NCBI GenBank assembly: GCA_012295275.1 | Contig: CM022677.1 | Coordinates: forward strand, 22,568,001 to 22,632,000 | Direction: 5' to 3' | DNA from: Chrysomallon squamiferum | Lineage: Eukaryota; Animalia; Mollusca | DNA: 64,000 nt | In this document: piece by piece, positions 42,335-59,235 of the stretch | How the letters are laid out: each line of letters starts with the position of its first letter | Numbering within the stretch: position 1 is the first letter of the stretch | Notes under the pieces: generated by a model | The model's input: the letters and a program-made list of their open reading frames with translations, nothing else | What the model was told of the DNA's origin: nothing | Databases searched by the model: none | Program-made: the position numbers and the translations under genes

Positions 42335-42470
42335 TTACTGTGAAGATTCACTGGTTTTGTTAAGCTTGTCAGCTTCAAAGGCAGGGTTGTTGAATGATTT
42401 AATTTCTTCTGATCTTGCTTCAAAGTTTTTCTCAGGAAATGTTTCGTAAACAACTTTGGGTTTCTTCCAC
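42335..42470 (-). CDS. terminal exon, cytoplasmic tail [11 protein letters not shown]...FNNPAFE...SSQ*
   Basis: CACAG acceptor, phase 2 matches TM exon, TAA at 42337-42335. Confidence 0.85.
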
Positions 42471-57400: not shown

Positions 57401-59235
57401 TGTTTTTATAGTCAGGAATAAAAATTGTTTGCTTTACTGTTTGTATTTCTTCACTTGGAGCGAAGGTTACGGTCAGCTGGGTGATGTATTGTTCACCAGC
57501 TGATGCGTGATGTCAGAGTGGCGGAAATAATATTTAAAAAAAGAAAAATAGAAATATAAAAATAATAAAAATAAAATAAAATAAAAAGTTATAACTTCTG
57601 AATCCTGACCAGAGTTTCTGATCATTAGTTCATCTACGTGAGCAAGCTGTCAGTGTTTGCTATTCAGAATGGGTTTGTCGGCTTGTCTGGTGAGCCGAAC
57701 AGTTTTTAAAAATTGAAGAATGGTACACTGCTCGTAGAATGTTGAACTTGATGTCTTCTTCAGTCGAGAGTTTTGTGTACTCATTGTGTCGCTTCATTCT
57801 TCCTGAAACTCTTGTAAGGGAAACATTAGGACCAAATATTTGGATGTAGTTTGTGAAGATGAAATCACTGAAAGCTTGATCCCTATATGTCGATTATTTT
57901 CACATTTGCTCTAAATCGTCCAATATGAGTACCAGTGAATGTAAGTTTCAGCATTTTTCGAAAACATTTCATCAATGGGTAACTGACAATGACTTTCGAT
58001 TCACAGACAAAAACGTTTTGTATGCATGTCTGCCAGACACGATGTCTCCACTTAGGTTATTCTGATGAGCATTCGCCGGTTAGTAGTAAGCGTAGATTAA
58101 ACAAAGCTGTTCATGAAGAACTGTTCCAGCAGTGGCTTTTTACACACACTGTTGCACTGTTAGCTTTGCCATGCAGTTCTGTGCGAAATCAGAGAAACAT
58201 AGTAATGAAGAGTGACATAAAACCAGCGATCTTGTTCCTTTCATACTGATTTGCACTTGCTACTGATAAATTTGTTTGAGATTTCTTTTAATTTTTTTTT
58301 CAAAATAGCCATGTCTCCTCTTTCTATATATATATATATTTATTTATTTTTATTTTTTTTTAAACACTTCACTAAGATCCACTGGTCTGTTATGCTACAT
58401 GATGGAAAACGAAACCTGAAAGCCCTGCACGCGCAAAGCAATGCACGCAAAACACATATAAACTAAAATATGATATAAAAACTTATATGTCTTTGTGTAC
58501 ATGTGTCTGTGTGCTTGTCTGTCTATGTGTATGATGCACGTTTTTATCTATGTAACTTACCTGGAATGGTTTTGTTGCACGTTGTGTGACCATCAGCACG
58601 CAACTTACCAACATCACCCGACTCACCATCACTGCAGATCCACAGACCTTCGTCCATTTTACTGAAAGATTCTATGGTGATTGTGATGACCGCACCCTCA
58701 ATTACTGCAGTGTATCTTTCGTCGAATGTCTTGCACTTCGTGTTTAGATAATTACAAAAAACAACTTCTTCTAGAAGATCATCATTTAGTCGTGTAAATC
58801 TTATTCCTTGTGTTACAGTACCAAGTACTTTACATCTTAATTTCGTAGTTTGTCCGGCCTGTGGTGTTTCCACACAATCTATATTCGTTCTTGCTAATCC
58901 AACTAGACAACATAATAATAATAATAATAATAATAATAATAATATTTTCATTCAATTCTAATAAATAAATAAATATAAATTTTAACAAATATGAAAAATG
59001 TACATGTCACACGTAAATTAAGAGCAGAAAATAAAAAGAACCGCCTGAGGGTTAATTATCTAATTGTATATAAAAGTTAAAACAAAAACAACAACATAGC
59101 TGATTGACAGGCTCGAGGCGGGTAATAGTATAACACAATGTAACTAGTACGAGATGTTCATTAGTGTAGTTTTATAAACTCACACGATATTGTTACCAAC
59201 TCTTGGATGATGAAAAAGCGAATAATAGTCTTCAT
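42335..59235 (-). CDS. type I membrane protein: signal peptide + Ig-like domain + 17 micro-exon-encoded basic/acidic stalk + TM + cytoplasmic tail
   Basis: 21 candidate exons with GT donors and AG acceptors join without stops; all internal stalk exons are phase 1-1 and multiples of 3. Confidence 0.8.
42835..42901 (-). CDS. transmembrane exon [23 protein letters not shown]
   Basis: Hydrophobic 20-mer followed by basic residues; phase 1 to phase 2. Confidence 0.85.
43018..44630. repeat. 60-bp minisatellite (~26 copies), intronic
   Basis: CAGTTTTATTTAGATTACACTCAGTACATGTTTTATATAACTACACGTTTTTTCTATTTT. Confidence 0.96.
45319..45363 (-). CDS. micro-exon 17 (45 nt) [15 protein letters not shown]
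   Basis: TTTTTCCAG|...|GTAGGT. Confidence 0.7.
45618..45644 (-). CDS. micro-exon 16 (27 nt) ETSMAKEQK
   Basis: GCAG|...|GTGAGT. Confidence 0.68.
45888..45914 (-). CDS. micro-exon 15 (27 nt) RSFGQETPH
   Basis: TTTTCTTCAG|...|GTAAGG. Confidence 0.72.
46209..46235 (-). CDS. micro-exon 14 (27 nt) GSSQDVDYS
   Basis: TTCTTCACCAG|...|GTAAGT. Confidence 0.72.
47448..47468 (-). CDS. micro-exon 13 (21 nt) EYYDDDE
   Basis: TTCTTCTTCAG|...|GTAAGT. Confidence 0.78.
48508..48528 (-). CDS. micro-exon 12 (21 nt) EYYDDDD
   Basis: CAG|...|GTAAGT; synonymous GAT/GAC change vs micro-exon 11. Confidence 0.78.
48967..48987 (-). CDS. micro-exon 11 (21 nt) EYYDDDD
   Basis: CAG|...|GTAAGT. Confidence 0.78.
49264..49281 (-). 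CDS. micro-exon 10 (18 nt) DDDHSN
   Basis: TAG|...|GTAATG; differs from micro-exon 8 by exactly one codon. Confidence 0.5.
49626..49643 (-). CDS. micro-exon 9 (18 nt) EYYDDD
   Basis: CAG|...|GTAAGT. Confidence 0.78.
50259..50273 (-). CDS. micro-exon 8 (15 nt) DDHSN
   Basis: TAG|...|GTAATG; weak polypyrimidine tract. Confidence 0.5.
50622..50636 (-). CDS. micro-exon 7 (15 nt) DDYDD
   Basis: TTCCTCAG|...|GTAAGT. Confidence 0.75.
51060..51505. repeat. 74-bp x6 tandem repeat, intronic
   Basis: AAAACTAAATTTAGTTTTCATGTAATCTTTGCAGATTGACAAAGTAGTACGAGATCATTT... Confidence 0.95.
51999..52019 (-). CDS. micro-exon 6 (21 nt) EDFGDDD
   Basis: Polypyrimidine + GAG (or AAG 3 nt later)|...|GTGAGT. Confidence 0.65.
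52553..52582 (-). CDS. micro-exon 5 (30 nt) [10 protein letters not shown]
   Basis: CTTTCTATAG|...|GTAAGT. Confidence 0.72.
53306..53329 (-). CDS. micro-exon 4 (24 nt) GFGRRLKK; ancestral CAG acceptor reads CAT, in-frame GAG 3 nt downstream
   Basis: TATACCATGAG|...|GTAAGT; paralogous to micro-exons 1-3. Confidence 0.5.
54271..54297 (-). CDS. micro-exon 3 (27 nt) RRVGGRLRR
   Basis: TTTATGTCAG|...|GTGAGT. Confidence 0.75.
54611..54631 (-). CDS. micro-exon 2 (21 nt) SRIGRGF
   Basis: TTTATACCAG|...|GTAAGT. Confidence 0.75.
55823..55843 (-). CDS. micro-exon 1 (21 nt) GFFTRVF
   Basis: TTTATACCAG|...|GTAAGT. Confidence 0.75.
57590..58260 (-). mobile_element. possible decayed DNA-transposon (MULE-like) fragment in intron
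   Basis: GC-richer, non-repetitive island; minus-strand peptides [10 protein letters not shown] and [10 protein letters not shown] loosely recall Mutator transposase C-termini; broken frames. Confidence 0.25.
58561..58902 (-). CDS. Ig-like domain exon (..[31 protein letters not shown])
   Basis: 342 nt, phase 1-1, LxC and DxGxWxC Ig signature, GTAAGT donor. Confidence 0.85.
59184..59235 (-). CDS. signal-peptide exon [17 protein letters not shown]
   Basis: ATG at 59235, GTGAGT donor, phase 1; acceptor upstream (exon starts 59256) implies a 5'UTR exon. Confidence 0.75.

Follow-up and report, generated by a model that had tools for sequence, protein, structure and literature searches.

This locus raises the question of whether a mollusc can build the stalk of an immunoglobulin (Ig) membrane protein from an array of very short exons and vary it by splicing. 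An earlier note had proposed such a gene on the minus strand of a 64,000-nt stretch of the Chrysomallon squamiferum genome (assembly GCA_012295275.1, contig CM022677.1, positions 22,568,001 to 22,632,000; hereafter the window, with positions counted from its first letter). From RNA contigs, splice signals and length arithmetic, we conclude with near certainty that the gene has this structure: a transcribed Ig exon is linked to a predicted transmembrane exon through a stalk of symmetric micro-exons. Joints at both ends of the array are present in RNA, with micro-exons spliced directly after the Ig exon and directly before the transmembrane exon, rather than the two being joined to each other.

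The Ig exon was found in five sequencing runs, of which X1 to X4 are RNA, all from one study, and X5 has no type record. The RNA data are assembled contigs rather than reads, and contigs lose rare forms. X5 was considered as a second RNA study, but it covers the introns and has zero joints, and was treated as DNA. Contamination with DNA was rejected as the source of the RNA signal, because the joints are GT-AG and the intron bins at 58300-59400 are empty: RNA contigs are restricted there to 58561-58901 and 59184-59256, and the flanking introns are uncovered. At the upstream end of the array, the RNA splices the Ig exon to a 24-nt exon (56173-56150; exon a in Table 1) that the earlier list of exons lacked. 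At the downstream end (45270-45930), X3 and X4 contain m15-m16-m17 and X1 contains m15-m17; all three use an acceptor at 45372, which makes the last micro-exon 54 nt instead of the 45 nt first given, and in all three the transcript continues into the transmembrane exon. Exon m14 lies upstream of m15 in the same three runs, and in X3 and X4 the 3 nt ahead of it are the end of a second overlooked exon (b, 46855-46841, 15 nt, upstream of 46235). Altogether, 7 of the 17 micro-exons were seen directly in RNA, two of these through no more than a few letters, and the other ten were deduced from length; the exons in the middle of the array (46900-56100) thus rest on length arithmetic and not on letter-by-letter RNA.

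The splice signals support the same structure. A fixed-rule scan of the interval from the Ig to the transmembrane exon found 20 GTRAG donors. For 15 of them, a pyrimidine-rich AG lay no more than 60 nt away, and an open exon with a length divisible by three was enclosed by 12 of these 15 pairs (binomial p=2.9e-4 against an expectation of 1/3, for an interval picked with the pattern already known). The opposite strand of this interval gave 14 donors, two with an acceptor and no such exon. Across positions 1-42000, the corresponding counts were 57, 3 and 0 on the minus strand, and 70, 6 and 1 on the plus strand. In 200 block shuffles, the mean number of such exons was 0.65 and the maximum 4. The rule itself mis-picked two acceptors and overlooked four exons.

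The length of the transcripts allowed the exon list to be repaired. A 475-nt contig of X3 and a 682-nt contig of X4 each contain exactly 303 nt between the end of the Ig exon and m15 (exon 45914), which is the length of the corrected exon set, compared with 300 nt for the earlier list. Among 9216 subsets of the intervening candidates, 15 equal 303 nt, and all 15 require 10 of 12 candidate exons; this arithmetic assumes that the RNA alleles carry the exon set of the window. Only one fitting subset avoids two candidates with GTAATG donors, and it contains every strong exon and an 18-nt m6, the best fit for the exon near 52010. A decayed 24-nt copy of exon a at 54780 could replace m4 arithmetically; adding it raises the number of fits to 73, still with one clean solution, which is unchanged. 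The two GTAATG candidates (50273-50259, 15 nt, and 49281-49264) had been listed as exons, and are probably intron because of their donors, their poor pyrimidine tracts (10-11/20) and the lack of any counterpart in two sister intron copies.

The total of 17 micro-exons proposed earlier therefore holds, but its membership does not: two exons had been missed and two are probably intron. Every exon of the earlier list did fit the described pattern of short, stop-free phase-1 exons divisible by three, 15 of the 17 combining a pyrimidine-rich acceptor with a GTRAG or GTAGGT donor. The 17 corrected micro-exons, too, are all open, in phase 1 and divisible by three. The gene had also been called invisible to annotation based on open reading frames, which is true of the stalk; the Ig exon does appear as an open reading frame. 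As a side observation, the GAG acceptors at m4 (53329) and m6 (52019) derive from the CAG of sister copies, and at 52019 a tandem AAG 3 nt downstream of the GAG matches the RNA length better.

Table 1. Exons of the Ig gene and decayed exon copies in the window
Feature	Position	Strand	Evidence and remarks
Non-coding first exon, 3' end	59589..59618	-	Start unmapped; X2-X4 RNA loose ends, then GTGAGT donor
Exon with ATG at 59235 and predicted weak signal peptide	59184..59256	-	RNA X2-X4; side by side with Ig exon in a single X2 contig
V-type Ig exon, 342 nt, phase 1-1	58561..58902	-	RNA in 4/4 runs; Pfam V-set below cut-off; structure model; Foldseek
Micro-exon a, 24 nt, absent from earlier list	56150..56173	-	Ig-a-m1 junction, 30/30 nt match, X3 and X4
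Micro-exon m1, 21 nt, cationic block	55823..55843	-	First 6 nt in RNA; strong splice sites
Micro-exon m2, 21 nt, cationic block	54611..54631	-	Splice sites; deduced from 303-nt length
Decayed copy of exon a, donor GTGGCA	54757..54780	-	
Micro-exon m3, 27 nt, cationic, with the sole furin-type motif (Rx[KR]R) at its end	54271..54297	-	Splice sites; length; motif scan
Micro-exon m4, 24 nt, cationic; its GAG acceptor is unusual	53306..53329	-	Deduced from length
Second decayed copy of exon a, donor GAAAGA	52878-52904	-	
Micro-exon m5, 30 nt, cationic	52553..52582	-	Splice sites; deduced from length
Micro-exon m6, 18 nt with AAG acceptor (21 nt with GAG at 52019), acidic	51999..52016	-	Length: 18 nt in only weak-donor-free solution
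Micro-exon m7, 15 nt, acidic	50622..50636	-	Splice sites; deduced from length
Micro-exon m9, 18 nt, acidic, Tyr pair	49626..49643	-	Splice sites; deduced from length
Micro-exon m11, 21 nt, acidic, Tyr pair	48967..48987	-	Splice sites; deduced from length
Micro-exon m12, 21 nt, acidic, Tyr pair	48508..48528	-	Splice sites; deduced from length
Micro-exon m13, 21 nt, acidic, Tyr pair	47448..47468	-	Splice sites; deduced from length
Micro-exon b, 15 nt, absent from earlier list	46841..46855	-	Last 3 nt before m14 in X3, X4; required for 303 nt
Micro-exon m14, 27 nt	46209..46235	-	Whole, as loose end joined to m15: X1, X3, X4
Micro-exon m15, 27 nt	45888..45914	-	Joints in X1, X3, X4
Micro-exon m16, 27 nt	45618..45644	-	In X3 and X4 (joints 45644-45888, 45372-45618); out in X1 (45372-45888)
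Last stalk exon m17, 54 nt	45319..45372	-	Joints at 45372; loose end enters transmembrane exon in X1, X3, X4
Predicted transmembrane exon, 67 nt	42835..42901	-	30 nt as loose end after m17; hydropathy 3.25 over 19 amino acids
Cytoplasmic-tail exon to stop, YxxF and FxNPxF sorting-type motifs	42335..42470	-	Frame and splice sites

We infer that the product is a type I membrane protein of 335 amino acids. In the model, a weak signal peptide is followed by the Ig domain, a cationic block, an acidic block, a polar linker, a transmembrane helix and a tail of about 45 residues. By hydropathy, the transmembrane stretch is clear, and the N-terminal hydrophobic core in the signal-peptide exon of the earlier note is weak. 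The Ig domain matched Pfam V-set below the cut-off (E 0.0011); its structure model (predicted local distance difference test, pLDDT, 90; predicted template modelling score, pTM, 0.81) has Fab, nanobody and CD8 V domains as top Foldseek matches, with probability 1.0 and template modelling scores of 0.65-0.77. The B- and F-strand cysteines C23 and C89 are invariant in 25/25 aligned sequences, and by its predicted structure the domain is a V-type Ig fold. A single extracellular Ig V domain together with a transmembrane helix is also a feature of BG/butyrophilin-like proteins.

The cationic block comprises 47 residues, of which 26% are Arg, with a net charge of +19, an isoelectric point (pI) of 12 and a hydrophobic moment of up to 1.06. 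Inside it, a motif scan detected six dibasic pairs and a single Rx[KR]R site. The following Asp/Tyr block spans about 40 residues with a net charge of about -29, and contains 8 Tyr with 7-9 acidic residues within five positions. Such acidic surroundings are typical of tyrosine sulfation, and these tyrosines are likely sulfated. The YxxF and FxNPxF sequences in the tail are of the type of endocytic sorting motifs; the motif scan did not find the consensus of the immunoreceptor tyrosine-based inhibitory motif in the tail, and the 136-nt tail exon had zero matches to Pfam families.

In a self-comparison, duplicated intron-exon units fell into two families, with 68-86% identity over up to 986 nt, and we conclude from them that the array evidently arose through duplication of such units. 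All length differences among the unit copies are multiples of 3, and the array contains two dead copies of exon a. The five cationic exons share 53% mutual identity (116/217; 56% when shuffled) while their upstream introns share 80% (428/534; 65% when shuffled), and the acidic exons are 86% mutually identical compared with 76% for their introns; the pairs in this comparison are not independent. Two tandem repeats were observed in the gene: a 60-bp minisatellite of ~23 copies (43017-44636) occupies the intron upstream of the transmembrane exon, and a 74-bp tandem of 6.4 copies (51058-51529) lies within a duplicated acidic unit.

The Ig domain has 49 relatives at E <=0.001. Eight of the ten that were looked up are proteins of Gigantopelta aegis, and the nearest Atlas clusters are chiefly from Mollusca. 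The G. aegis family, annotated as uncharacterised or CEACAM-like (XP_041373067.1, XP_041373299.1, XP_041361640-2.1), has the same 6-cysteine V-type domain at 27-50% identity, and many members have a transmembrane helix and a short tail. Judging by these matches, the Ig family is expanded in a vent snail. RefSeq isoforms of G. aegis LOC121377638 differ by an in-frame piece of 16 amino acids in an uncharged, repeated linker after the Ig domain, a hint of short skippable exons in a relative. A word-based search for full-length relatives returned none at 199-2000 or 420-2000 residues and, elsewhere, three known short matches, which is weak evidence of absence. Within the window, tblastn with the Ig domain and 52 relatives found one Ig exon only. 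In RNA, loose ends of X3 and X4 at 58869 and 58612 belong to transcripts that match the Ig exon in its first part and differ beyond it, which would be paralogs with a near-identical 5' part located outside the window. X4 also contains a second Ig haplotype or paralog (58693-58865), in which 16/173 nt differ, 12 of them non-synonymous, with a cluster near residues 28-60. The loose ends and this 9%-divergent Ig contig show that paralogs or divergent alleles exist.

Is the stalk varied by splicing? In X1, the 27-nt exon m16 is left out in frame at a depth of 42, and this is the only spliced form there. Contigs of X1 and X2 end exactly at 58561, the 3' border of the Ig exon. At this border, X1 has a lone 31-mer with a depth of 22, compared with 51, whose last letter does not align to the intron G, and the downstream contig of X1 starts 1 nt ahead of m14. 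From these contig breaks at exon borders, we infer several alternative neighbours at both borders within X1, and the stops in X1 and X2 point to further skips besides that of m16. True alternative splicing is likely. A joint of X3 (45372-45528) was not counted as an isoform, having a depth of 3.4 and 6 ambiguous letters. Low-depth contigs retaining introns were also observed in X1 and X3 (45357-45557 and 45701-45917); the same insertion of 11 nt, absent from the window, occurs in two of them.

We propose, with about an even chance of being right, that the protein is a microbe-binding and endocytic surface receptor. The cationic, amphipathic segment of the stalk would grip anionic microbial surfaces, the acidic block would mask it or hold it out, and the tail motifs YxxF and FxNPxF would drive endocytosis. 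Gain, loss and skipping of exons would retune the length and net charge of the stalk between individuals or tissues, an effect of tuning that would not amount to a repertoire on the scale of Dscam.

Several observations weigh against this reading. Ten of the 17 micro-exons were not read letter by letter, the alleles of the RNA animals may differ from the window, and the four runs share one study. X3 (depth 44) and X4 (depth 12) each follow one unbranched path through the whole array, so that, of the combinatorial diversification claimed in the earlier note, the RNA displays one direct in-frame skip and does not demonstrate a large repertoire. Even that skip could be allelic. The signal peptide is weak: its best 8-residue hydropathy is 2.3, and it contains Arg, Gln and Glu. 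The second Ig haplotype or paralog of X4 does not demonstrate positive selection on the domain, its pN/pS (non-synonymous to synonymous differences) of 0.91 not being above 1. The intron flanks in the identity comparison are AT-rich and include constrained splice signals. None of the 49 relatives has a charged stalk, their best 30-residue windows reaching +8 and -8; the stalk is therefore either young or overlooked by the annotation of the relatives.

A somewhat unlikely alternative is that the protein is a membrane-tethered precursor of an antimicrobial peptide, in which a furin-type convertase would cut the stalk and detach the cationic amphipathic peptide, either alone or still attached to the Ig domain shed with it, from a neutralising acidic pro-piece, the micro-exons being modular peptide units. 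Precursors of mussel myticalins, as described in PMC5577615, likewise have an Arg-rich variable cationic segment followed by an Asp/Glu-rich one; the cationic segment has an Arg content of over 10% and a pI above 11, values that the stalk exceeds (pI 12, 26% Arg, +19 then about -29). The cleavage motifs inside the cationic block and the faster divergence of the cationic exons than of their introns also suit a precursor, as does the membrane binding of amphipathic peptides of schistosome micro-exon genes (MEGs) (PMC10526429). However, the furin-type motif is found midway along the cationic block; the junction with the acidic block lacks it, the last Arg there being followed by Pro. The layout differs too: myticalins are secreted and encoded by three exons, with the signal peptide directly ahead of the peptide, the cationic part in a single exon and a dibasic site at the border (PMC5577615), whereas here the cationic segment is spread across 6 micro-exons, an Ig domain intervenes, a transmembrane helix follows and there is no clean border site.

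A possible but doubtful extension joins this peptide to the receptor: a MEG-like splicing cassette that a mollusc evolved independently inside an Ig receptor, in which six micro-exons would encode a membrane-active cationic peptide and six an acidic antidote. Skipping and convertase cleavage would then switch the protein from a tether that is masked to an antimicrobial that is exposed or set free, and back. If true, splicing would let an invertebrate vary a microbe-binding surface protein, and the switch could manage, for example, symbionts or surface bacteria.

It is quite unlikely, in our view, that an adhesion or self-recognition Ig protein carries the stalk as a plain spacer without any role in tuning, with exon number drifting by unequal duplication and skips that are allelic or noise at weak sites. 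The three variable places in X1 do adjoin those exons whose signals are weaker (a, b and m16, the last with 12/20 pyrimidines at its acceptor), exon a has decayed copies, X1 and X3 show low-depth intron retention, X3 and X4 have one form each, and the G. aegis isoforms differ in an uncharged linker. On the other hand, the order of the charge blocks and the amphipathy were retained while the cationic exons diverged to background identity, and the skip of m16 is the sole spliced form of X1 at high depth, unlike noise.

Mollusc shells contain Asp-rich proteins. A matrix or biomineralisation membrane protein, acting at the epithelium that forms shell or scales, is nevertheless the least probable of these readings; its 39-residue Asp/Tyr block (net about -29) would bind Ca or Fe ions, and its Gly/Arg block would bind acidic polymers of the matrix. 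Ig-domain families are reported to be expanded in the scaly-foot snail, whose sclerite proteome also contains them (PMC11871041), but the passages of that paper examined do not name the present gene. A receptor is a better match for the endocytic motifs of the tail and for cationic exons that diverge fast.

Sequence kinship with schistosome MEGs is not expected. These genes have 10-20 short symmetric exons, long introns, a signal peptide and skips that keep the frame; some products are amphipathic or membrane-anchored, and SmVAL6 couples a folded domain with small skippable exons (PMC4350168, PMC4015677, PMC10526429). The present gene resembles them in its short symmetric exons and long introns, with a signal peptide that is weakly predicted and a single direct skip that may be allelic. 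The description as MEG-like thus holds for the symmetric-exon design, but the gene is not a member of the class, because micro-exons make up 41% of its coding sequence (411/1008 nt; 35% in exons <=36 nt), it belongs to a mollusc, a gastropod, and its micro-exons lie between a V-type Ig head and a transmembrane helix, while MEGs are described as mostly micro-exon and apparently restricted to flatworms (PMC4350168).

Chicken BG genes, which are butyrophilin-like, share with the present gene a single Ig-V exon, a transmembrane helix and many small exons, 13-36 of 21/24 nt in BG, which are alternatively spliced there (PMC4046983). These BG exons follow the transmembrane exon and encode a cytoplasmic heptad coiled coil. 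In the present gene, the micro-exons precede the transmembrane exon, measure 15 to 54 nt and code for charged blocks on the extracellular side, and a single exon forms the tail. Extended series of symmetric micro-exons that can be skipped have been described as a speciality of parasitic flatworms (PMC4350168), with the BG tails as a vertebrate parallel. Our literature search, which did not cover supplements, found no report of a mollusc Ig gene with micro-exons. The RNA-supported case in a gastropod Ig ectodomain shows that the design has arisen again, on the host side, and its founding duplicated units are still legible, including dead copies and exons outpacing introns. Charged micro-exon stalks are easily lost in annotation, and mollusc Ig repertoires may therefore be mis-modelled.

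Two other genes were recognised in the window, both on the plus strand. At 61645-63583, head-to-head with the Ig gene, a RING-finger exon and a long frame with weak NHL/beta-propeller matches form a TRIM-like gene, with no B-box among the frames scanned. A multi-exon gene of the VPS13 family (~700-37300), with Pfam VPS13_M and VPS13_C in 2/7 frames scanned, lies tail-to-tail with the Ig gene, in whose presumed 3' untranslated region a 165-bp duplication is 93% identical (41833-41996 / 42060-42220).

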